Below are positions 13,147 through 56,737 of a stretch of 64,000 bases of DNA, piece by piece. Made by a program: the position numbers and the translations under genes. The DNA is taken from positions 12,462 to 76,461 of the forward strand of contig CAZEAE010000003.1 of the NCBI GenBank assembly GCA_964510095.1, given 5' to 3'. The DNA comes from an uncultured Elusimicrobia bacterium. GTDB taxonomy: Bacteria > Elusimicrobiota > Elusimicrobia > UBA1565 > UBA9628. The notes beneath the pieces were generated by a model. That model was not told the DNA's origin. It saw only the letters and a list, made by a program, of their open reading frames with translations, and made no database searches. Each line of letters starts with the position of its first letter. Within the stretch, counting starts at the first letter, position 1.

Positions 13147-14499
13147 GTGAATAACCAAGATCCTCGGGCGTTTTGGCTACGAGCGGTCGATGTCCTCCGG
13201 GGAGAGATAGGAGAGGAGAACGCCGAGCTTTGGCTCAAGCCTGTCGAAGCGCTTCGTTTTGACGAGCAGGTCCTGGTTTTAAAGGTGCCCAACAAGTTCT
13301 TCTCCGATGGCATCAAGGAGCGATACCAAAAGAAGCTGGTCGCGATCTTCAAGGACCTCTCGAGGCTGGACGTCGGCTTGGACTACGAGATCTCGCGGGA
13401 CTTGCGCAGCGTGCTCCCCGCTTCCGACCCCGTCCCGGAGCCCGGGCCTCAGTCTGACTTTCCCCTCAGCGAGCTCAACCCCCGCTACACCTTCGCCTCC
13501 TTCGTCATCGGAGCGTCGAACCGATTCGCCCATGCCACCGCCGAGTCGATCTCGAAGAATCCGGGGAAACAATACAACCCTTATTTCATCTACGGCGGCG
13601 TCGGCTTGGGCAAAACCCATCTTATGCATGCCATCGGCAACGCCATGCGCAAGGAGCATCCCCGCGCGCGCGTTCTCTACACGACGGCGGAGCAATTCGT
13701 CAACGAGTACATCACCTCGGTCCAGAACAACAAGCCTGACGACTTCAGGGCGAAATACCGCAACCTCGACTGCCTGCTGCTCGATGATATCCAGTTCCTC
13801 ATCGGGAAGGACCGCAGCGTCGAAGAGTTCTTTCACACCTTCAACTCGCTGTTCCAGTCTCAAAAACAGCTTATCATCTCGTCGGACCGCTCTCCGCAGG
13901 AGATGGCGCCCTTGGATCAACGCATCACCTCGCGCCTTGCCTGGGGCGTGGTCGCCGACATCACGATCCCGGACCTCGAGACACGCATCGCCATCCTGCG
14001 CAAGAAGGCCGGCGCTGAGAATTTTACCGTGCCCGACGACGTCATCTTGTTCGTGGCTTCGGCCGTGAAGTCCAATATCCGCGCCCTGGAAGGATCCCTT
14101 ATCCGCCTGACGGCCTTCTCGGCCATGTCCGGCAGCAGCTTGACCGTCGACGACGCCAAGGAGATATTGAAGGACTCCCTCAGCACGGACAACACCTCCC
14201 CGGTCCGCATAGAGACGATACTGAGGATCGTCTCCCATAAATATTCCATCGACGTTAAAGACCTCAAGGGACATCAAAGGACCGCCTCCATCGCCCTGCC
14301 CCGCCAGTTGGCCATGTATCTAGCCTGCGTGATGACGGAGCTTTCCTCCACCGACATAGGGCGCGCCTTCGGCGGAAAAGACCATTCCACCGTGCTCCAT
14401 GCCCGGAAAAAGATCCAAAAGCAGGTGGAAGAAGACCCCTTTATCCTGGAAGTGATCAATAAGCTACAATCAGACATCAAGGCTGTGGAAAACCAGTGA
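13147..14499 (+). CDS. dnaA: chromosomal replication initiator DnaA
   Basis: GGVGLGKTHLMHAIGN Walker A, AAA+ sensor motifs, C-terminal DNA-binding domain; GTG start. Confidence 0.95.
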   Translation: MNNQDPRAFWLRAVDVLRGEIGEENAELWLKPVEALRFDEQVLVLKVPNKFFSDGIKERYQKKLVAIFKDLSRLDVGLDYEISRDLRSVLPASDPVPEPGPQSDFPLSELNPRYTFASFVIGASNRFAHATAESISKNPGKQYNPYFIYGGVGLGKTHLMHAIGNAMRKEHPRARVLYTTAEQFVNEYITSVQNNKPDDFRAKYRNLDCLLLDDIQFLIGKDRSVEEFFHTFNSLFQSQKQLIISSDRSPQEMAPLDQRITSRLAWGVVADITIPDLETRIAILRKKAGAENFTVPDDVILFVASAVKSNIRALEGSLIRLTAFSAMSGSSLTVDDAKEILKDSLSTDNTSPVRIETILRIVSHKYSIDVKDLKGHQRTASIALPRQLAMYLACVMTELSSTDIGRAFGGKDHSTVLHARKKIQKQVEEDPFILEVINKLQSDIKAVENQ

Positions 14500-14650
14500 A
14501 AGAAACCGCTGTTAGGACGAATAACCCGCAATGCTGTGGATAATGGGGATAAGTAATCGAAGTTGTCCACAATCCGTTTTTTTGATGGCGGCAGGGAAGA
14601 CTCTCTTATCCACAACTCGGCGATGCTGATTAATAAGAGGATGAATTAGA
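14500..14650. promoter_or_regulatory. oriC: oriC segment 2: DnaA-box cluster between dnaA and dnaN
   Basis: TGTGGATAA 14525..14533, TTGTCCACA 14553..14561 (1 mismatch), perfect TTATCCACA 14606..14614, AT-rich tail. Confidence 0.55.
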
Positions 14651-15765
14651 ATGAAAATAATATGCAGTAAAGAAGACCTGGCTCAAGGAGTCCAAACCAT
14701 ACAGTCCGCGCTGTCTTCCCGGACGACCCTTCCCATACTTCTCAATTTCCTTCTAGAGACGGAAAATTCAAAAGTCAAAGTCATTTCGACCGATCTTGAG
14801 ATGGGCGTGAAGCATTATATCGGAGCGGCGGTGGAAAGCGACGGCGCCATCACTATCCCCGCTAAAAAATTCTCAGACATCCTCCATAGCCTCCCGGACG
14901 GGCAGGATGTGGAGCTTTCCGTCGATTCCGGAGATAAAATACAGCTTAAGTGCGGCCGTTCCCGGTTCGGTATCATAGGTGCGCCTAAATCGGAATATCC
15001 CGTCCTGCCTGATTTCAGCAAGGAGAACGCCTTTCAGGTCCCGGCCGGGGTCATCGGGGATATGGTCAAAAAAACCATCTTCGCCGCTTCTTCAGATGAG
15101 ACAAGACATGTGCTCAACGGCGTCTTCTGGTCCGCCAAGAAGGGAACCTTGGAGATGGTGGCCACCGACGGGCGCCGCCTAGCGGTCGTCGCCAAGAAGA
15201 TCGTCCCGAAGGAGAAGGATTTCTCCGTGATCGTGCCGACCAAGGTACTTTCGGAGCTTTTAAGGCTTTTCAGCTCCATGGATATAAAGAGCGACTCGAC
15301 CGAGCCGATGCTGGTCTCGGTCACCGATAACCAGATAACCTTCCAATTCAAGACGACGACTTTATTATCGCGCTTGGTCGGAGGAGCTTTCCCTAACTAC
15401 GAGCAGGTCATCCCGAGCAAGAAGGATATAGTCATACTCCTCAACACCAAAGACCTCATCGCCGTCACGAAGAGAGCCTCTCTTTGCGCCATCGACCGCG
15501 GCGGCTCGGTCAAGTACGTGCTTAAAAAGGGAACGCTGTTCGTCTCAGCCTCCAGCCAAAACCAGGAATTCAGCGAGGAGCTCCCGATCGAGTTCTCGGG
15601 AGATGAGTTCCAAGTCGCCTTCAATCCTCAATTCGTCATGGACGCCTTGAAGCATGTCGATGCCGAGAAGATGACCCTGGGGCTGACCACGCCGGTCAAT
15701 CCCGCGCTTATCGAGCCGGAGGGCAAGGGTGACTATAAATTCGTCATCATGCCTATGCGGATCTG

Positions 15766-15766
<1 letters not shown>
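14651..15766 (+). CDS. dnaN: DNA polymerase III beta sliding clamp
   Basis: MKIICSKEDL start, 371 aa three-domain clamp, canonical position after dnaA. Confidence 0.95.
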
Positions 15767-18698
<2,932 letters not shown>

Positions 18699-25361: not shown

Positions 25362-26334
25362 AAGGAACGACGGAAGGCTCGCTTTGTCCGGTCACGCCGG
25401 ACACGTTGCGCGCCGCGCCGCGCAGGTAGAGCCCGGCGCCGACCTTATCGGCGGGCAGGCTGAACAGGAAGGGCTGGCGGCGCTGCAGGCGCGTGATGCG
25501 CTCCCAATCCAGCTGGTCGCGGGAGCTTTCGACCCAGGCTTCGTCGATGTTCTCTCCCGACACCGAGAAGGACGCCACGTAGCGCTTGCCCGCCCTTTGG
25601 GCGCTGAACTCCGTGACCGCGATCTCCTCGGAGCCGGAGGGCACGAGCTTGATGGCAAGGGCCGGGTAGATGCTGTTGATCGGGGTTTCCAGGGCCGTGG
25701 CGGCGTTGCGCGGCGGCACGCCCGAGATCGAGTGGTTGTTCCAGGCGCGGGTCTCGCGCGGAGAAGAATCCTCGACGGGGGCGGCGGCCAGGATGGGCGC
25801 GCTCGAGGCTCGGACGAAGTGCTGCGTCGGCGACCAGACGATGAGGTAGTTGGGCTGCGAGAAGCTGACCATGGCGCGAGGCACCTCGGCCCAGAACCAG
25901 TCCGACCCGCCGACGCCTTCGAGGTAGGCATGAGCGTCGGGCTCCAAGGGCAGGTCGGAGGTCTCGGCAAGGAAGAAGCTCTGCTCAGCGGTGAAAGACG
26001 GCGTCTGCGACACGCCCATGTAGACCTTGCCTGCGATGAGCTCGCGCAGCCAGGGCTTGTCGACGTTGGGGCGGGTCTTGGCGCGGCCTATCTTCGCGCC
26101 GATGAAAGCCCTGGAGAAATCCCCCAGCGGCGCCGGCGGGAGCTTGATGATCCAGGCGTTGTTGAAGCCGATGAACCAGTTGGCATCAGAACCGCTATCG
26201 GCGAAGCGGCCGAAGTCGTTGATGCTGGCCGCCAGCGAAAGATAGGTCGGCAGGATCGTGCTTGTTGAGAACACGGGGGCTTCAAAGCCCCAACTGGTCC
26301 CCGCCAGGAAGATTGCTAAATACGAAAAAATCAT
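25351..26334 (-). CDS. hypothetical secreted protein
   Basis: N-terminal hydrophobic segment MIFSYLAIFLAGTSWG, no recognisable catalytic motifs. Confidence 0.35.
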   Translation of the reverse strand: MIFSYLAIFLAGTSWGFEAPVFSTSTILPTYLSLAASINDFGRFADSGSDANWFIGFNNAWIIKLPPAPLGDFSRAFIGAKIGRAKTRPNVDKPWLRELIAGKVYMGVSQTPSFTAEQSFFLAETSDLPLEPDAHAYLEGVGGSDWFWAEVPRAMVSFSQPNYLIVWSPTQHFVRASSAPILAAAPVEDSSPRETRAWNNHSISGVPPRNAATALETPINSIYPALAIKLVPSGSEEIAVTEFSAQRAGKRYVASFSVSGENIDEAWVESSRDQLDWERITRLQRRQPFLFSLPADKVGAGLYLRGAARNVSGVTGQSEPSVVPYGP

Positions 26335-27215
26335 TATTTTTTAAACATATTTACGATTTTATCAAAGTCCGTCAACGAGTAAAAATGGATCGTGATCTTG
26401 CCCTTGGTTGGATCCTTTTTCGTCCGGATGTCTACCTTGGTGCCCAAGACCTGCTGCAAGGCGCCCTCCAGGGCCTTGATATCGGCTGATTTCGGGGTTT
26501 GGGGTTTTATGGAAGGCAAGGGGGTTTCCAATCCTTCGCCAGCCTCGACCTTGCGGGCCAGGTCTTCGGTTTCACGCACCGAGAGGCGGCGTTCCTGGAC
26601 TATATCAAAAAGTCCTTTTCTTTCCAGCGGATTTTTAACAACAAGCAAGGCTCGGCCATGGCCTTCGCTGATCTGGCCGAACTCTAGGGCCTTCTGGATC
26701 TCGTCGGAAAGTTCGAGCAAGCGTAGTGTGTTGGAGATCACGGCCTTGGACTTTCCTACGATCTGGCCGAGTTCGGTCTGATTGATCGAGAACTCTTTCA
26801 TCAATCGAAGGAAGCCTAGCGCTTCTTCGATGGCATTAAGATCCTCTCGCTGGATGTTCTCGATAAGAGCCAAAGCCAAGCGCTCTTTGTCTGATTTCGG
26901 GTGTCGAACGATCACCTCGACTTCATCGAGGCCGGCGAGTTCGCAGGCGCGCAGACGGCGTTCTCCCGCGATGAGTTCATAGGAGTTGTCGCTCTTGTCG
27001 AAGGATACGAGGATGGGTTGGGCTAGTCCATGCTCCTTGATGGAGGCGGATAATTCGCTCAAGCGTTCCGGGTCGAAATGGCGTCGCGGCTGGAGGCGGT
27101 TCGGCCGGATCTTAGAGATAGAAATCAGTGACGTTTGTTCTTTTGGGGTGATCACCGAGGGCTTTGGGGCGACAGGAATGAGAGCATCAAGACCGCGGCC
27201 TAGGGCGTTTCTCAT
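26334..27215 (-). CDS. parB: chromosome partitioning protein ParB
   Basis: GERRLRA ParB box (LIAGERRLRACELAGL), HTH, 293 aa; overlaps parA stop. Confidence 0.9.
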   Translation of the reverse strand: MRNALGRGLDALIPVAPKPSVITPKEQTSLISISKIRPNRLQPRRHFDPERLSELSASIKEHGLAQPILVSFDKSDNSYELIAGERRLRACELAGLDEVEVIVRHPKSDKERLALALIENIQREDLNAIEEALGFLRLMKEFSINQTELGQIVGKSKAVISNTLRLLELSDEIQKALEFGQISEGHGRALLVVKNPLERKGLFDIVQERRLSVRETEDLARKVEAGEGLETPLPSIKPQTPKSADIKALEGALQQVLGTKVDIRTKKDPTKGKITIHFYSLTDFDKIVNMFKK

Positions 27216-28024
27216 GAGGGATTCTCCAGTGTGATGGTTTCCGTAGGTGCGGGCAGGTCGACGCCGCGGCGGGCAAGAAGCTCGCGAGCGAAGGCTGCAT
27301 AGGCTTCAGCTCCCTTGGATTTTGGGTCGTACTGAAATATGCTTTGACCGAACCCCGGCGCTTCGGCAATGCGGATGTTTCTGGGGATGATCGTGGAAAA
27401 CATTCGGGGTCCGAAAAACTTGCCGACCTCGTCTTTGACCTGATTAGAGAGCGTCATCCGGGCATCGAACATGGTAAGTACCCCCCCCTCTATCACTAGG
27501 TTAGGGTTGAGGGCTTGCTGAATCCGTTGGACCGCGTCTATGAACTGGGCCAATCCCTCCATGGCATAATATTCGCCCTGGATCGGTACGATGGTCTTGG
27601 ATGCGGCATTGAGAGCGTTGATCGTCAATAGGCCAAGAGAAGGCGGGCAGTCGATGATAATGTAGTCGAAGCGGTCCTTGATGCCGCTTAAGGCTCCCTT
27701 GAGCCTGCTTTCTCGGGCAAGCGCGGATACGAGTTCGACTTCTGCGCCGATCAGGTCTTGATTTGAGCCGGCAACGGACAAAAAAGAGAGCGCTGTCTCT
27801 TTGATGGTTTTTTCCAGAGGCATCAATTCAACGAGCACGTTGTAGATGTTCGGGGTAAAAGAACGCTTGTCAAAACCGAGGCCGGAGGTGGCGTTTCCTT
27901 GGGGATCCATGTCTATTAGCAATGTTCTTTTCCCGTGGCTGGCTAGGGCTGCGGCCAAATTGACGGCCGTTGTCGTTTTTCCCACCCCCCCTTTTTGATT
28001 CGCTATCGCAATTATTTCAGACAT
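27212..28024 (-). CDS. parA: chromosome partitioning ATPase ParA/Soj
   Basis: deviant Walker A NQKGGVGKTTTAVNLA, 270 aa. Confidence 0.9.
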   Translation of the reverse strand: MSEIIAIANQKGGVGKTTTAVNLAAALASHGKRTLLIDMDPQGNATSGLGFDKRSFTPNIYNVLVELMPLEKTIKETALSFLSVAGSNQDLIGAEVELVSALARESRLKGALSGIKDRFDYIIIDCPPSLGLLTINALNAASKTIVPIQGEYYAMEGLAQFIDAVQRIQQALNPNLVIEGGVLTMFDARMTLSNQVKDEVGKFFGPRMFSTIIPRNIRIAEAPGFGQSIFQYDPKSKGAEAYAAFARELLARRGVDLPAPTETITLENPS

Positions 28025-52789: not shown

Positions 52790-52854
52790 GGTATGCGGGC
52801 CTTATTACTATACCCCTAAATGCCGCTCTTGGCCAGGGGCGGAGTGGAAAAATC

Positions 52855-52928
52855 TGCGCCCGGCTGGACTTGAACCAGCGACCCTTCGGTTATGAGCCGA
52901 GTGCTCTGACCAACTGAGCTACGGGCGC
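52855..52928 (-). tRNA. tRNA-Met (anticodon CAU; elongator-type or tRNA-Ile2 lysidine substrate), no encoded CCA
   Basis: reverse complement folds as cloverleaf: acceptor GCGCCCG/CGGGCGC, D-arm GCTC-AGTTGGTCA-GAGC, anticodon loop CTCATAA, T-arm GCTGG-TTCAAGT-CCAGC; anticodon-stem pair 29-41 is C-G so not the initiator. Confidence 0.85.
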
Positions 52929-52930
52929 GT
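52889..52930. repeat. 42-bp direct repeat copy 1 (tRNA-Met positions 1-39 plus 2 flanking nt)
   Basis: gttatgagccgagtgctctgaccaactgagctacgggcgcgt identical to 55948..55989. Confidence 0.85.
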
Positions 52931-53678
52931 CCTTGTATTTTACAGAGTTTTTCCCCGTCGCGGGGCGGCTTGTGGGCGCCGTCTGTGGCCAAACTGTGGC
53001 CAAGAAGGTCATGCGTGTCATCTGGGGGCCGCGACCGACTGAGGAACAAGGACATTTACTTTCGGGGCTGTCATTGGGTCCATTAGGTATCTCCCGCCGA
53101 CGGGGATGAATTCCCTCACGACGAGTCTTCGGGCGGCCTCCTCGCTGATGCGACCGCGACTTGAGGGAAGAAAGGACGATTAGAAACCCGGTCTTTCGTG
53201 CAATTTGGGCGCCTGGCCATTACCAACAACCAGCTTCATGAGTGTAAGACACATGGCACCGCGCACCCCGTCCGCTACCCGCTCCTGGTCATGGGGGCAT
53301 TCGAACACGGTGCGGAGAATAGGATGTAACCCAGCGTGAATCACCAGTGGTATTGCGCCGCAATGACGTGGACACTCTGTTACTCCGTCGCCGTGTATGC
53401 ACATGGCTACGCCCAAATAGCTTGACCAGGGTTTGAGCTACCAGAAGACCAGCATCTTGCTTGGCCTGGTTAAACGAACGTCCTGCCCTCAGGCGTTGCA
53501 GGCGAGCCTCACGGATAGTCCTTAGAACGAACAGAGTCACATCCTCGCCCGCAGGCCGTCTTGCAAAGTATGCGTTGATTGCTCTGCGGATCACGGGTAT
53601 AAGTGGCGCGAGATACCGTGTTCGACGTCGCGCCTTGTCTGTATCGGATGGAAACTCATCCTGTCGCACCCATACCAT
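52931..53678 (-). pseudogene. tyrosine recombinase (phage-type integrase) remnant with frameshifts
   Basis: three minus-strand frame fragments in collinear order: DVTLFVLRTIREARLQRL...QAKQDAGL (53289..53678), TECPRHCGAIPLVIHAGLHPIL (53180..53416, resembles HxLRHTfA block), DLLGHSLATDG (52816..53055, resembles LLGHssi.tT block) running into the tRNA; catalytic Tyr not found. Confidence 0.35.
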
Positions 53679-53727
53679 GATACCCCCTAGACTTCTTTCG
53701 CCAAGGTCCCCCTACATGCCACGGCTC

Positions 53728-55722
53728 TCACCGAAGTCGCGTTCCCTGTATCTTGCCGCCTGCTGGTAAAAGCTGCGGCGTCTGATCCCGGTTGTGCAGC
53801 CGTGCCGCGTCCTGGACTTTTGGGGTCAGGTAGTCGTAGAGGGATTGCACCGTCACATGGCCGGAATCGTTCTTCGCCTCGCCACCCAGCCCCTTAAGCA
53901 GGTAATAGGTGAACGCCCCATGCCCCTGATTTTCAATCGTGCCGGAGATTTCGTTCTTGTCGGATGCCGTAAGCGCGATCACGTTGCCCGGCAGGACCCC
54001 TAGGTCAATCTGGCTGACAAGGGGCCGTGTTCCATTGGCCAGAACAGAGCGTCCGCCAGCCCCGGAGAAGCAGGAATCGAGGGCCACAATCACATGGCGG
54101 GCCTTGAGACTGCCGAGTTTTGCGTATAGTTGCTTGATGGGGTAAGCGGTACTATCGAGGTCTTCGGCGTCACCATCCACAGGAACAAGGTAGGCCTGGT
54201 TGGTCCGAGGATCGGGCGCCCCATGTCCCGAGTAGTAGAAGAAAACAGTCGACTTGTTGCTGACGCGCTTCGGCAACCAGGTGTTGAGGGCCTGGTCGAT
54301 CTTGGCTCTGGTGGCTTGTTGGCCGCCTAGAAAATAGATGTTTCGCGGTGGGTAGCCGAGTGCTGTCAGATGCGCGCGGACGGCGGCGGCATCTCGCTCG
54401 GCAAAATCTGCGGCGGGGAGGCCCACATATTTTTCGATGCCGATGATGACCGCGAAAGCATTGGGATTCTCCTTTGCTGAATATTCAGGCTTATCGACGT
54501 CGGAAACAATGGGTTTGATTGCATCTTTAGTGGCGGGGTTTTCATACTTCATCGACGCCTCAGGCGAAGCGGGCACTTGTAGGTCTGTCGCCATTTTACC
54601 CACGTCCACCTGCGCCAGCGTGTTGGACGTTTCACCCGAGACGGCGATTGCTGCCATTGATTTGCCAGCCACGATCAGCTCTGCTGATACAACCGAAAGT
54701 GATCCGTTTGTCGCGAGGAACTGGATAATTGGCTGCGCTTTGGTGAGCTTCCGGTCAAAAGCGTTTGCTTCCGAGCTTGGGATGGCGTCCTTCAATTTGA
54801 GCTTGATCGCAAATCCGCCAGACTTTTCTCCTGTGGGGAGGATGTCGACAAAAAAACTCTGGGAATCCGAATCGTAATCGGTCTTGCCCACTTTTGGGTT
54901 CTCAAATACCGAGGTGAAGGCCGCTTCCATGATTTCAGAGTTGGGCGCTGAGTTCAACCTGTCATTGTAGCTTCGCACTGCATCTTTATAAGTTTTCTCT
55001 GCCTGGTTCACACGCGCGGCAAAGTCAGATTTTCCCTCATACTTTCCTTGATTCAACACTGGTGATACTGGCTTTGGGCCAGCATAATCCAGGATGATCT
55101 CGGGTACTCGGTAGGCCACGAGATCAAGGCCAGACTTGTGCAGCGTCCATGCGATACCGTCACGTGAACCGACGCAGGTGTAATCTCCAACGCTATTATC
55201 AAACTCCTTTTCAAACTGGCCTATCGTGTTGCTCCAGTTACGGGGCGTGTCGAACGATTTCCCATCTGAAGAAGGCACAGCATACAGCCAGCCATAGTCT
55301 CCAATCACGATTTTATACTGGCCATCGGGAGTGAGCAGGGCATCCATGTTTGGATAGACGTTTGGTTCGGTAAATGTGTATGGCATGAAAATGGCCGACT
55401 CGCTGTCTCGTCCATGTCGTCTGTTTTTCTTCAAGAGTTTCTTAACGAGCGGTGATTCTTGGTGACGACCCCAGGTGAACTGAGAGGATGTGGTAGGTTC
55501 CTGCTTCGCGCCCGCCGATTTCTCGGCAACTGGAGAGCACCAGACATCGTTGGATAGGCAGAGAATCGCCGTCACCGGCGCGACCAGCAACGCCAGCAGA
55601 CCGGCCAGCAGGGGCTTTTTCACAAGGCCAGTATAAGCCCGCTGTCGAGGGCCGTCAAGAGCGCATCTGCGTCTGCCTGACTCTCTGGGTTGGCCGGGGC
55701 TCTGCCTCCGCGCATTCATCAC
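53728..55722 (-). CDS. secreted caspase-family (peptidase C14, orthocaspase-like) protein with ~400-aa unknown N-terminal region
   Basis: C-terminal FAVIIGIEKY...VFFYYSGHG (catalytic His)...HVIVALDSCFSG (catalytic Cys); N-terminal signal-like KKPLLAGLLALLVAPVTA; alternative GTG start at 55623; lower GC than flanks. Confidence 0.75.
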   Translation of the reverse strand: MMNARRQSPGQPRESGRRRCALDGPRQRAYTGLVKKPLLAGLLALLVAPVTAILCLSNDVWCSPVAEKSAGAKQEPTTSSQFTWGRHQESPLVKKLLKKNRRHGRDSESAIFMPYTFTEPNVYPNMDALLTPDGQYKIVIGDYGWLYAVPSSDGKSFDTPRNWSNTIGQFEKEFDNSVGDYTCVGSRDGIAWTLHKSGLDLVAYRVPEIILDYAGPKPVSPVLNQGKYEGKSDFAARVNQAEKTYKDAVRSYNDRLNSAPNSEIMEAAFTSVFENPKVGKTDYDSDSQSFFVDILPTGEKSGGFAIKLKLKDAIPSSEANAFDRKLTKAQPIIQFLATNGSLSVVSAELIVAGKSMAAIAVSGETSNTLAQVDVGKMATDLQVPASPEASMKYENPATKDAIKPIVSDVDKPEYSAKENPNAFAVIIGIEKYVGLPAADFAERDAAAVRAHLTALGYPPRNIYFLGGQQATRAKIDQALNTWLPKRVSNKSTVFFYYSGHGAPDPRTNQAYLVPVDGDAEDLDSTAYPIKQLYAKLGSLKARHVIVALDSCFSGAGGRSVLANGTRPLVSQIDLGVLPGNVIALTASDKNEISGTIENQGHGAFTYYLLKGLGGEAKNDSGHVTVQSLYDYLTPKVQDAARLHNRDQTPQLLPAGGKIQGTRLR

Positions 55723-55947
55723 CGCGCAGAGATCCTGGCGCCGCTGTCAGGCCAGGGGTCGCCGACTTCCCAGTGGCTGCGGGCTGCACACGCATCCATG
55801 TGGCCAAGTTGTGGCCAAGACCTTCAGGAAACCGTGCGAAAAGACGCGAAAGGTCGCGTAATGGCGGGAAGGCGGATTAAACGCTTGCTCATCGACAAGC
55901 AGCATTTCTCGACGGGCCGGAACTACACGCAAGAAGCGTGATAAGAC

Positions 55948-55989
55948 GTTATGAGCCGAGTGCTCTGACCAACTGAGCTACGGGCGCGT
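55948..55989. repeat. 42-bp direct repeat copy 2 (truncated tRNA-Met 5' half, attR-like)
   Basis: identical 42-mer; lacks the tRNA 3' half, so not a functional gene. Confidence 0.85.
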
Positions 55990-56057
55990 GGTAGGATTTT
56001 ACAACACTTTCTCGGGTCGCCGGGTCCTTCAGCGGTGGTGTCCCTCCTGCTCGAAGA

Positions 56058-56525
56058 CTAGCGCCCCGCCTCGAGCTCCTGGACGTCGAGAAGGTCCTTC
56101 GGACGGGCGACGGCGCGTTTATTGCGGATCAGATCCTCTCGAGAGATGAAGTTGACCGTTTCCGCGCCGAAGGAACCGGTCTGGCGGCGGGACCAGGCCT
56201 GCTCGAAGTCGACGCCGGGAAGCTTGGACAGGATGTCCACCTTGACCGGCGCGTCACCCAGCGAGATCCCGTTATCGCGGGTAAAAACCTCGGGCCGCAG
56301 CTCGGGACAAGCCCCGCCCGCGTCCTCCAAGGCCGCCACGGCCCGTTTGGCATTGTCTTCGCTGGGTCGGATGTAAAGATCGAGGTCTTCGGTCATGCGC
56401 ACATGGCCGTAGTACACGACGGCCCAGCCGCCGATGACCATGAAGTCGACGCGGTGCCGGTTGAAGGCGGCTACGATCCTGTCGAAGGCATCCGGCTCGG
56501 AGGCCTCTTGAGGGCTTGGGCTCAT
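56058..56525 (-). CDS. minimal nucleotidyltransferase-fold protein
   Basis: FMVIGGWAVVYYGHVRMTEDLDLYI matches the GG...[DE]xD NTase signature; 155 aa. Confidence 0.5.
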   Translation of the reverse strand: MSPSPQEASEPDAFDRIVAAFNRHRVDFMVIGGWAVVYYGHVRMTEDLDLYIRPSEDNAKRAVAALEDAGGACPELRPEVFTRDNGISLGDAPVKVDILSKLPGVDFEQAWSRRQTGSFGAETVNFISREDLIRNKRAVARPKDLLDVQELEAGR

Positions 56526-56737
56526 CAGGTTCGATAGGGCCCGATGACGCGCGCGGCCTTGCTCAAGGGAGGGAGGTCCTGACGGTGGAATAGACGCCAG
56601 AATTTGCGGCGCAGCTTTTTCGCGCCCTCGATGCGTTCTTCAGGCGGTCGTGAGAGCCAATAGGCGCGATTCTCCGCGCTGGAATCAGGCCAGGTCCCCT
56701 TGGGGATGATCGTGACCGCTAGTTTCTGGCGTTCCAT
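56525..56737 (-). CDS. hypothetical small protein upstream of the NTase gene
   Basis: 70-aa ORF whose stop abuts the NTase start; basic, no motifs; overlaps the end of the YfhO-like gene by 19 nt, so the call is weak. Confidence 0.2.
   Translation of the reverse strand: MERQKLAVTIIPKGTWPDSSAENRAYWLSRPPEERIEGAKKLRRKFWRLFHRQDLPPLSKAARVIGPYRT

Follow-up and report, generated by a model that had tools for sequence, protein, structure and literature searches.

Orthocaspases and bacterial metacaspases (MEROPS C14), such as MaOC1 from Microcystis and GSU0716 from Geobacter (PDB 3BIJ), possess a Peptidase_C14 domain with a His-Cys dyad, one Asp at position -2 from the catalytic Cys and another on helix alpha1, and those that have been characterised are cytoplasmic cyanobacterial enzymes. 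Signal peptides or transmembrane helices at the N-terminus, and fusions to WD40, TPR or Sel1 domains, are common in prokaryotic caspase homologues (PMC3501461). In the metacaspase TbMCA2 and the paracaspase MALT1, the acidic S1 residues Asp95/Asp211 and Asp365/Asp462, respectively, set basic P1 specificity (PMC4357240). EACC1-associated caspases (NF047832) belong to NTP-dependent conflict systems, and Zhang et al. 2012 described Sec-exported toxins that combine a signal peptide, Ank, Sel1, TPR or beta-propeller repeats and caspase domains, and in which the C-terminal caspase domain may act as the toxin (PMC3482391).

The locus described here lies in a 64-kb stretch of DNA from an uncultured Elusimicrobia bacterium, referred to as the window, and encodes a caspase-family protein that shares with orthocaspases the Peptidase_C14 domain, its dyad and both of the Asp residues. 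Unlike in orthocaspases, the caspase domain is C-terminal, follows a conserved SDVDxP junction and is accompanied by a further module, N2, and the protein is predicted to be exported rather than cytoplasmic. It possesses acidic S1 residues equivalent to those of MALT1, TbMCA2 and the metacaspase Yca1, but exhibits only 13-23% identity with these eukaryotic, cytosolic proteins. The EACC1-associated caspases provide the best-scoring NCBIfam model for the domain; however, the score falls below the cutoff, an EACC1 adaptor domain and an NTPase partner are absent, and the product is predicted to leave the cytoplasm. Sec-exported proteins of the polymorphic-toxin type resemble it in their signal peptide, repeat or adaptor region, C-terminal caspase, mobility and modular recombination, whereas here the variable part is N-terminal, the caspase is constant, and RHS, filamentous and trafficking domains are lacking.

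The DNA around the gene resembles tRNA-integrated islands and, in particular, their integrase-less, cis-mobilisable remnants (CIME-like elements), with which it shares tRNA-fragment direct repeats, internal arm-like repeats, a single cargo gene and a composition that is foreign to the host. Integrative elements usually duplicate the 3' part of a tRNA gene, whereas the repeat in the window consists of the tRNA 5' half and a promoter-like box, and, unlike intact tRNA-integrated islands, this island has neither integrase nor excisionase. We read the protein, with a probability of about 0.6, as an exported, target-directed clan-CD C14 endopeptidase that acts outside the cytoplasm and is carried as the cargo of a mobile element.

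Table 1. Features of the caspase gene and of the island that carries it. ORF aa, residue numbers counted from the start of the 664-aa ORF.
Feature	Position	Strand	Details and basis
Intact tRNA-Met(CAT)	52855..52928	-	ARAGORN; Rfam tRNA, 71 bits
attR-like repeat	52889..52965	-	Repeat family D1
Island DNA downstream of the caspase gene, without credible gene	52931..53727		About 800 bp; ORF129 and ORF78 only
Tandem TGTGGCCAA motif, island right end	52984..53005	+	D2; candidate recombinase arm-type site
Caspase-family CDS	53728..55623	-	631 aa and stop; GTG start at 55623
Conserved SDVDKP junction and Peptidase_C14 domain (caspase/metacaspase-like)	53731..54507	-	Pfam, Foldseek, conservation
Inter-domain linker, ORF aa 366-405	54508..54627	-	Predicted disordered; pLDDT 30-48
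N2 caspase-associated module (unnamed), ORF aa 196-365	54628..55137	-	Recurrence and predicted fold
N1 orphan segment, ORF aa 130-195	55138..55335	-	pLDDT 43-59
Charged low-complexity linker, ORF aa 64-129	55336..55533	-	Predicted disordered
Predicted Sec signal peptide, (fM)KKPLLAGLLALLVAPVTAILCLSNDVWC	55534..55623	-	Hydrophobicity and homology
Putative sigma-70-like promoter, TTGACG-17-TATACT	55630..55658	-	Ends 6 nt before the GTG
Tandem TGTGGCCAA motif, island left end	55799..55820	+	D2; candidate recombinase arm-type site
attL-like repeat	55948..56024	-	Truncated tRNA-Met 5' half and tRNA-promoter-like upstream sequence

Caspase domain and active site

The C-terminal 250 residues are a bona fide Peptidase_C14 domain, as the sequence-only reading had proposed from its motifs. 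Pfam PF00656 aligns to ORF aa 423-651 (E=6e-16; 59.2 bits against a gathering threshold of 21.4), and the catalytic dyad comprises His500 in YYSGHG (codon 54223-54225) and Cys551 in ALDSCFSG (codon 54070-54072). Across 163 aligned domains, His500, Cys551 and Asp549, which precedes the catalytic Cys by two residues, are each 99% conserved and Asp444 is 96% conserved. At the DNA level, the domain is 78% identical to its homologues from position 54472 downward. The AF2 model exceeds a pLDDT of 90 throughout the domain, and Foldseek places it close to MALT1, GSU0716 and metacaspases (E values from 5e-10 to 1e-8) and, with caspases included, finds matches up to an E value of 1e-6. The best of these are MALT1 and the metacaspases TbMCA2 and Yca1 (E 5e-10; target-based TM of up to 0.76). 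By phmmer, the sequence resembles those of solved structures only marginally (E~5e-4), among them 7QP0 and 3BIJ, whose alignment was used in placing the S1 residues.

Asp444, at the start of helix alpha1, and Asp549 align with Asp95/Asp211 of TbMCA2 and Asp365/Asp462 of MALT1 (PMC4357240), and acidic residues thereby occupy the alpha1 and L4 positions of the S1 pocket that are held by Arg and Gln in caspases. On the basis of these two aligned residues, the enzyme is predicted to cleave after Arg or Lys at P1.

Gene start, promoter and export signal

The sequence-only reading placed the gene at 53728..55722, which is an ORF of 664 aa on the minus strand. This frame exists, but its 5' end is 99 nt too long, and translation starts instead at the GTG at 55623, given that both the promoter and the start alignment are conserved and that an NCBI model of 631 aa is available. 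The GTG aligns with the ATG or GTG starts of five homologues (P0003, P0006, P0007, P0009 and P0011), of which P0006 likewise uses GTG. The 631-aa product is equal to GenBank entry MEK7858459.1, a 'caspase family protein' from an Elusimicrobiota MAG, and this model falls in the same protein cluster as the window caspase. The 631-codon frame is intact in a gene of about 55% GC.

The 99 nt upstream of the GTG, which the longer ORF counts as coding, contain a promoter-like site that agrees with the sigma-70 consensus at 10 of 12 positions in a promoter scan. The spacing of the -35 box, the -10 box and the start is common to the window and the loci L005, L060 and L062, and L059 retains only the spacing between the -10 box and the start. 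Given that the -10 box lies 6 nt before the GTG, the caspase mRNA is probably leaderless or has a very short leader.

Initiation at this GTG exposes a Sec signal peptide, the hydrophobic segment of which corresponds to aa 34-63 of the 664-aa ORF and reaches a Kyte-Doolittle maximum of 2.66 over 12 aa. It is homologous to the signal peptides of P0003, P0006, P0009 and P0011 and to the lipoprotein signal of P0007, and cleavage is likely to occur at VWC|SP. A Cys at the -1 position of such a site is unusual. The hydrophobicity and the homology suggest that the protein is exported via Sec, in agreement with the sequence-only reading. That reading also regarded a secreted stand-alone version as atypical, which does not hold, given that 112 of 119 homologues possess a hydrophobic N-terminal signal, 62 with a lipobox, and that fusions and signals are common among prokaryotic relatives.

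The N-terminal region

The 400 residues in front of the caspase domain had been described as one large domain of unknown fold. No Pfam or NCBIfam family was found across them, N2 included; however, they separate into four parts: the signal peptide, a disordered linker, an orphan stretch of about 65 aa (N1) and a module of about 170 aa (N2). The first linker has an AF2 pLDDT of 26-48, and no homologues of it were recovered in an HMMER search with the N-terminal region. N1 is reached only by the alignments of P0134 and P0169, where it is paired with WD40 blades at low identity, and may have been left over from a terminal beta-propeller blade ('TPDGQY...'). N1 and the first 160 or so residues are modelled at low confidence and could be the non-functional debris of a domain swap.

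N2 is a recurrent module that is located upstream of caspase domains and, in relatives, between these and WD40 or Ank domains. A word-indexed search with aa 113-420 returned nothing, whereas an exhaustive HMMER search recovered the N2 family in 53 representative clusters at E<1e-3, 31 of them at E<1e-10, with a match that spans ORF aa 196-415 and a local HMM that defines about 210 positions. The predicted fold comprises three helices followed by a beta3-alpha-beta3 unit (AF2 pLDDT 89; pTM 0.74) and has no match in the PDB or BFVD. WD40 matches dominated when the PDB was searched with a profile of alignment A1, and LemA was considered for the helices but returned only weak matches below cutoff (E 0.009-0.16) that were judged not meaningful. 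The module has neither a Pfam family nor a solved structural relative and merits a family definition and a structure. Comparison with the N2 consensus indicates that the linker between N2 and the caspase domain is shorter than in most N2 homologues, which possess 25-30 or so additional residues that are probably helical or coiled-coil.

The tRNA-Met island

Apart from the caspase gene, no credible gene lies within the 3.06-kb island, which is bounded by direct repeats (repeat spacing 3059). The repeats share 42 identical nucleotides (52889-52930 and 55948-55989) that represent the 5' half of tRNA-Met, and the TGTAAAAT box upstream of the intact tRNA-Met sits within island DNA. The TGTGGCCAA motif is present in four copies, distributed over the two island ends, and nowhere else in the window. 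The GC3 of the caspase gene is 0.617, against 0.81-0.88 in flanking genes. Low GC3 is also exhibited by parA and parB (0.62-0.63) and dnaN (0.70) in the same window, and dnaA is likewise low in GC; low GC was accordingly rejected as sole proof of foreign origin. It is the combination of tRNA-half repeats and foreign codon composition that supports horizontal acquisition on a tRNA-linked element, as had been claimed, together with the arm-like repeats and a homologue on a tRNA-Ala element. From the repeats and the composition alone, we infer that an element integrated here.

Downstream of the caspase gene, neither ORF129 nor ORF78 has a homologue among 5.8 billion proteins, and the GC3 of ORF129 (0.49) is lower than its GC1, so the caspase stands as the sole intact cargo. 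A decayed integrase in this segment was considered and rejected, as neither ORF has a Pfam match even at E<=10, and tblastx found no match between the island and the integrase of L005. The island also contains no NTPase, cyclase, SAVED, TPR or integrase gene, which bears out the earlier claim that no partner is encoded. Beside the island, no EACC1 domain, NTPase or sensor was found in orf70, NTase155, the YfhO-like gene, orf251, orf94 or HEAT540.

In a search for an empty site, orf251 had no match in GTDB genomes and no genome with an empty site was found. Two Elusimicrobia possess relatives of the YfhO-like gene (56-58% identity), in regions that are not syntenic and contain no tRNA, and one metagenome contig that carries orf251 (57%) and HEAT540 has a different gene directly upstream and no tRNA. 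A viral origin was rejected, as there is no relative in IMG/VR, viral contigs do not contain the arm-repeat motif, and no fold match was found in BFVD.

Homologues and their neighbourhoods

A close homologue is P0003, which has the same promoter and signal peptide as the window gene and a caspase domain of 81% identity, and which lies at the far end of an intact 9.2-kb tRNA-Ala element with an integrase, an HTH_17 gene and 100-nt att repeats. Although their hosts are high in GC, the mobile copies P0003 and P0009 have a GC3 of close to 0.6; P0008, P0024, P0028 and P0048, which are chromosomal homologues, match the composition of their neighbours. In the sub-lineage formed by the window protein, P0003, P0006, P0007, P0009 and P0011, the promoter, signal peptide and caspase domain are constant and the middle varies, consisting of Sel1, an unknown domain or N1/N2, and several members are carried by different mobile elements. 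Front domains among the homologues as a whole include Ank, Sel1, TPR, PDZ and WD40.

More distant homologues (53-67% identity, one at 80%) are encoded on chromosomes among housekeeping genes and have the composition of native genes. The sequence-only reading had stated that such a distribution, joined to an N-terminal domain of a known cell-wall-binding or sorting type, would speak against it; the distribution is found in these distant homologues, but the N-terminal region belongs to no known type of sorting or wall-binding domain. A defence-island context, for which a check of synteny had been suggested, is not seen, the neighbourhoods of homologues being housekeeping or unrelated genes. The gene stands alone: across seven loci the downstream genes all differ, and no conserved partner or immunity gene is present among them.

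Discussion

In the reading that we prefer, Sec would export an orthocaspase/metacaspase-like cysteine endopeptidase from the cytoplasm of a diderm Elusimicrobiota cell, at least as far as the periplasm, where the constant C-terminal domain would cut after Arg or Lys by means of His500 and Cys551. The N-terminal part, with its flexible linker, orphan segment and alpha/beta N2 module, would serve in recognition or regulation, N2 being the module that in relatives joins WD40 or ankyrin domains to a caspase of the same type. Transcription would be driven by a strong promoter that belongs to the gene itself and whose -10 box precedes the start codon by 6 nt, and the caspase would be the only surviving cargo of an integrase-less remnant that recombined into the 5' half of tRNA-Met. 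The sub-lineage would have kept its ends and swapped its middle on different mobile carriers, within a wider family that appears to consist of native exported lipoproteins in housekeeping neighbourhoods.

Much of the same evidence could describe a secreted antagonistic effector of the 'Tox-caspase' type, directed against bacteria, predators or a host, with the swappable N-terminal module picking the target. The gene lies on mobile DNA, a variable middle between constant ends suggests diversifying target recognition, and Sec-exported caspase toxins of similar architecture are on record (PMC3482391). We nevertheless consider a toxin unlikely, as the window has no cognate immunity gene downstream and none is conserved across the seven loci, no trafficking domain or nearby secretion-system gene is present, native lipoproteins encoded in housekeeping operons account for many members of the family, and a constant C-terminal domain is the reverse of polymorphic-toxin logic. 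Export weighs against the possibility, toward which the sequence-only reading leaned, of an anti-phage or abortive-infection effector that is activated by infection and kills the cell or cleaves phage proteins, given that it would separate the enzyme from infection signals in the cytoplasm. The PADLOC generic caspase model does match (E=4e-20), but over profile positions 1-192 of 453, which is the caspase part only, and no other PADLOC model matches, so that a multi-gene defence system with a cytoplasmic sensor is not found. Similarly, the top NCBIfam match, 'caspase, EACC1-associated type', scores 95.6 bits against a cutoff of 140 and its EACC1 domain is absent. The weak AbiEii/DUF6036-like nucleotidyltransferase gene that adjoins the mobile island lies beyond the repeats and has host composition (GC3 0.81). 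With NTPase, cyclase, SAVED and TPR sensors absent from the island, no conserved neighbour, and homologues outside defence islands, a defence role appears highly improbable.

A third possibility is that the gene is a functionless, decaying chimera, in which a WD40-N2-caspase remnant was fused to a signal peptide on a dead element and is expressed little or not at all. The integrase has been lost and 800 bp of the island are junk, N1 is a low-confidence orphan and perhaps the relic of a propeller, the helical segment of most N2 homologues is missing from the linker, and the start codon is GTG. Decay is decidedly unlikely, however, in view of the intact frame of 631 codons at about 55% GC, the retention of all catalytic and S1 residues, a promoter and start architecture that is shared with intact relatives, including the GTG of P0006, and the confident predicted folding of both N2 and the caspase domain.

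The preferred reading of an exported, target-directed endopeptidase can be extended further, to a form that we regard as quite unlikely. The sub-lineage would then constitute a mobile and diversifying 'addressable exported protease' system, in which the middle modules aim an Arg/Lys-specific caspase at different extracytoplasmic targets, as part of conflicts with competitors, predators or phages at the cell envelope; N2 would have a fold not described before and would gate the caspase or bring about its oligomerisation, and the duplication of a tRNA 5' half would be the signature of an unusual class of integrase that provides a tRNA promoter of its own.

The constant promoter, signal peptide and protease around a swapped middle, on different integrative elements, make this exported enzyme a tractable subject for the study of domain shuffling, although neither this lead nor N2 alters a major open question as it stands. 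The survey suggests that most caspase-fold proteases of Elusimicrobiota belong to the envelope or the extracellular space and are not cytoplasmic effectors of death or defence, and cautions that mobile 'caspase' genes are not all abortive-infection genes. Among Elusimicrobiota, exported relatives of caspases whose front domains can be swapped are common, and the window gene is a fairly ordinary member of this group.

Gene model, start codon and promoter

The caspase-like gene described by the sequence-only reading is real, given the ORF call, a Peptidase_C14 match and both catalytic motifs, but its 5' end had been placed too far upstream of the actual start, a GTG at 55623. Residue numbers here follow the longer, 664-aa ORF. 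Homologue N-termini open with 'MRKLLLVGLSAFLV.PL..LL.LSNAWGD', and translation from this GTG gives 'VKKPLLAGLLALLVAPVTAILCLSNDVWC'; the homologue P0006 also starts with GTG. In a DNA alignment of the upstream regions of six loci, the window and the homologue loci L005, L060 and L062 have both promoter boxes in common, -35 (TTGACGGCC) and -10 (TATACTG), with the start codon (ATG or GTG) 4-8 nt beyond the -10 box; L059 and L007 retain the -10 box and its distance to the start codon but not the -35 box. The window site scores 10/12 in a consensus scan. Because only 6 nt separate its -10 box from the GTG, the query mRNA may be leaderless or nearly so, and leaderless translation is suggested for the exported caspases of these loci. 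Public gene models conflict. The NCBI model for this 205-kb contig, from a Hainich groundwater metagenome, begins at the GTG and is already listed in GenBank as 'caspase family protein [Elusimicrobiota bacterium]'. Another database model, P0001, starts only at Met113 and so lacks the signal peptide; localisation predictions made from it would be wrong.

Coordinates of features in the window and in homologue loci
Feature	Locus	Position	Remark
Caspase-like ORF	window	53728-55722 (-)	664 aa
CDS from GTG	window	53728-55623 (-)	631 aa, MEK7858459.1
P0001 model	window	53728-55386	552 aa
Motif YYSGHG, His500	window	54223-54225	His codon
Motif ALDSCFSG, Cys551	window	54070-54072	Cys codon
Promoter-like site	window	55658-55630	TTGACG-17-TATACT
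Conserved promoter and start	window	55623-55658	TTGACGGCC-17-TATACTG
Conserved promoter and start	L005	7964-8003	TTGACGGCC-17-TATACTG
Conserved promoter and start	L060	852-888	TTGACGGCC-17-TATACTG
Conserved promoter and start	L062	93-129	TTGACGGCC-17-TATACTG
-10 box and start spacing only	L059	1039-1053	
Shared DNA block 1	window	55658-55550	promoter and signal peptide
Shared DNA block 2	window	54472-53728	caspase domain
tRNA-Met(CAT)	window	52855-52928 (-)	ARAGORN
Identical direct repeat	window	52889-52930; 55948-55989	42 nt
Extended repeats	window	52889-52965; 55948-56024	tRNA-Met 5' half, promoter-like TGTAAAAT box
Tandem TGTGGCCAA	window	52984-53005; 55799-55820	candidate arm sites
Nucleotidyltransferase-like ORF and overlapping 70-aa ORF	window	56058-56737 (-)	155 aa and 70 aa
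Rfam 'Plastid-ycf2 5'UTR' match	window	52854-52928 (+)	sub-threshold
dnaA, dnaN, gyrB, parB/parA	window	13147-18698; 26334-28024	low GC
Second caspase C-terminal fragment	L059	6-278	truncated by contig end
DUF4384 lipoprotein gene	L053	8359-9306	
193-aa lipoprotein, LpoB-like and LPP20-like genes	L055	7683-9979	

A tRNA-Met island with one cargo gene

No credible gene besides that of the caspase lies between two identical copies of the first 40 nt (plus 2 nt) of the window's sole tRNA, in line with the sole intact cargo of a tRNA-linked element that the sequence-only reading had proposed; the 800 bp downstream of the caspase gene hold ORFs without homologues or Pfam matches and with a non-coding-like codon composition. 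Upstream of both copies the similarity is weaker and includes the shared TGTAAAAT box. Tandem TGTGGCCAA occurs just inside each island end and nowhere else in the window, and these repeats look like recombinase arm sites. The island is best read as an integrase-less, CIME-like remnant. Elements that target tRNA genes usually duplicate the 3' part of the tRNA, whereas this island duplicates the 5' half, an unusual polarity; the intact tRNA-Met is now preceded by island DNA with a tRNA-promoter-like box and so would be driven by island DNA mimicking a tRNA promoter.

GC content is 54-58% in the 53-56 kb stretch versus about 64-70% in adjoining stretches, and GC3 is 0.617 in the caspase gene, 0.81-0.88 in the genes flanking the island and about 0.85 in most genes. 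Composition alone is not decisive for a foreign origin, because parA and parB (0.62-0.63) and dnaN (0.70) also have low GC3; the origin region with dnaA, dnaN and gyrB and the parB/parA genes are low in GC. Together, the tRNA-half repeats, the GC3 difference from the flanking genes and a relative on a tRNA-Ala element support horizontal acquisition, as first proposed.

Beside the island's left repeat lie two ORFs of host-like composition that overlap by one base, a 70-aa ORF and, directly downstream, a nucleotidyltransferase-like ORF with sub-threshold DUF6036, AbiEii and aminoglycoside-NTase matches (PADLOC AbiEii, 6.5e-5); the pair resembles a toxin-antitoxin module. An Rfam match antisense to the tRNA (39 bits, gathering score 66) is in all likelihood an artefact, caused by tRNA-like sequence.

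Mobile and native relatives

P0003, whose caspase domain is 81% identical, has the promoter and signal peptide of the query and a Sel1 middle. Its gene occupies the distal end of a low-GC element of 9.2 kb that sits in tRNA-Ala and has 100-nt att repeats, an HTH_17 gene and, unlike the window island, an integrase (a Phage_integrase gene adjoining the tRNA); this lends independent support to the island's mobile origin. P0006 and P0009 neighbour either RadC, sigma-factor and DUF6573 genes or HTH_17 and DUF4011-helicase genes. P0006 is immediately preceded, on the same strand, by a diverged caspase fragment with 36% identity, so some elements may carry caspase genes in tandem. GC3 is about 0.6 in the window copy, P0003 and P0009, with hosts at 0.85-0.94. 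More distant homologues occupy housekeeping rather than defence neighbourhoods, with GC3 of 0.79-0.89 like their neighbours: P0008 (amtB-glnB-caspase-DUF2914-gltB), P0024 (MscS-caspase-DUF4384-UDG), P0028 (adjoining LpoB, LPP20 and AsmA genes) and P0048 (overlapping folK).

The query shares two DNA blocks with its mobile relatives, at 70-75% identity over the promoter and signal peptide and 78% over the caspase domain; between them no DNA is shared, and this middle has the lowest GC. Constant ends with nothing common between them point to recombinational swapping of a putative recognition module, and this modular, mobile design is a modest lead.

A recurrent module in the N-terminal region

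The N-terminal 400 aa, previously taken as one region of unknown fold, match no Pfam or NCBIfam family, LemA matches being sub-threshold noise, but they are not a single domain: they split into a signal peptide, stretches predicted to be disordered, an orphan segment (N1) and a recurrent module (N2). In close homologues (61-83% identical) the match is confined to the final ~40% of the query, and the part upstream of the caspase holds ankyrin, Sel1, TPR, PDZ, WD40 or no known domain. HMMER, run exhaustively with aa 34-420, recovered 53 representative clusters (31 of them below E=1e-10), of which nearly all align solely to aa ~196-415. In these proteins the ~210-aa N2 module is preceded by ankyrin repeats or a WD40 propeller and followed by a C-terminal caspase domain 26-67% (mostly 44-67%) identical to the query's. 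In one representative a thioredoxin-like segment (WCPPC motif) follows N2 in place of the caspase domain, so N2 is not strictly caspase-bound.

In AlphaFold2 models built with the N2-search alignment, aa 34-195 are disordered or uncertain (pLDDT <60), N2 (89-97) and the caspase domain (>90) are confident, and aa 366-405 form a disordered linker (30-48). Modelled alone, N2 (pLDDT 89, pTM 0.74) comprises three helices followed by beta3-alpha-beta3. N1 (aa 130-195) is possibly a propeller relic, since two matches pair it, at low similarity, with terminal WD40 blades ('TPDGQY' versus 'SPDGQY'). The unnamed N2 module is likewise a modest lead.

Catalytic domain, export and proposed role

Assignment to peptidase C14 with a His/Cys dyad stands: Peptidase_C14 matches aa 423-651 (E=6e-16, 59 bits, cutoff 21) and, in an alignment of 163 domains, conservation is 99% at His500, at Cys551 and at Asp549 (two residues before the Cys), 96% at Asp444 (at the start of helix alpha1) and 77-87% in the SDVDxP junction directly before the domain. 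In sequence the domain is only marginally similar to proteins of solved structure. Structure comparison places it near MALT1, Geobacter GSU0716, metacaspases and caspases (E 5e-10 and weaker). Asp444 and Asp549 align with Asp95/Asp211 of TbMCA2 and Asp365/Asp462 of MALT1, which make an acidic S1 pocket; the counterparts in caspases are Arg and Gln (PMC4357240). From these positions we predict Arg/Lys specificity at P1.

Export had been claimed correctly and is predicted from the signal peptide at the true start. It is not atypical of a stand-alone caspase, because 112/119 caspase-domain homologues are strongly hydrophobic near the N-terminus and prokaryotic caspase homologues often carry N-terminal TM helices, 'likely signal peptides', with WD40, TPR and Sel1 as their commonest partner domains (Asplund-Samuelsson et al., PMC3501461). 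The remaining seven of the 119 look like truncated gene models, and predicted export is the norm for the family. A lipobox-like L-x-[GAS]-C is present in 62 of the 119; the P0007 signal peptide is of the query type but ends in LTGC.

The reading preferred here, with a probability of about 0.6, is a Sec-exported clan-CD endopeptidase that would cut after Arg or Lys, with N-terminal modules that would select or regulate its extracytoplasmic targets, encoded by a gene that would ride, with its own promoter, as cargo on a decayed tRNA island. An exported antagonistic effector of the 'Tox-caspase' kind is unlikely: the architecture is compatible with PMC3482391, yet the variability pattern is inverted and none of the seven loci compared has a conserved downstream gene, and therefore no conserved immunity or partner gene, in line with the earlier statement that no cognate partner is encoded. 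Somewhat less likely still is a non-functional chimera, to which the decay of N1 and of the element would testify, although the reading frame is unbroken and the catalytic residues and promoter are preserved. The defence or abortive-infection role raised initially is very improbable, since the PADLOC match is to a generic caspase model alone, the score against the EACC1-type family falls short of its cutoff, and the protein is predicted to be exported and has no sensor.

Envelope-type genes lie downstream of two chromosomal caspase homologues, in L053 and L055, a hint that the native members of the family act in the envelope.
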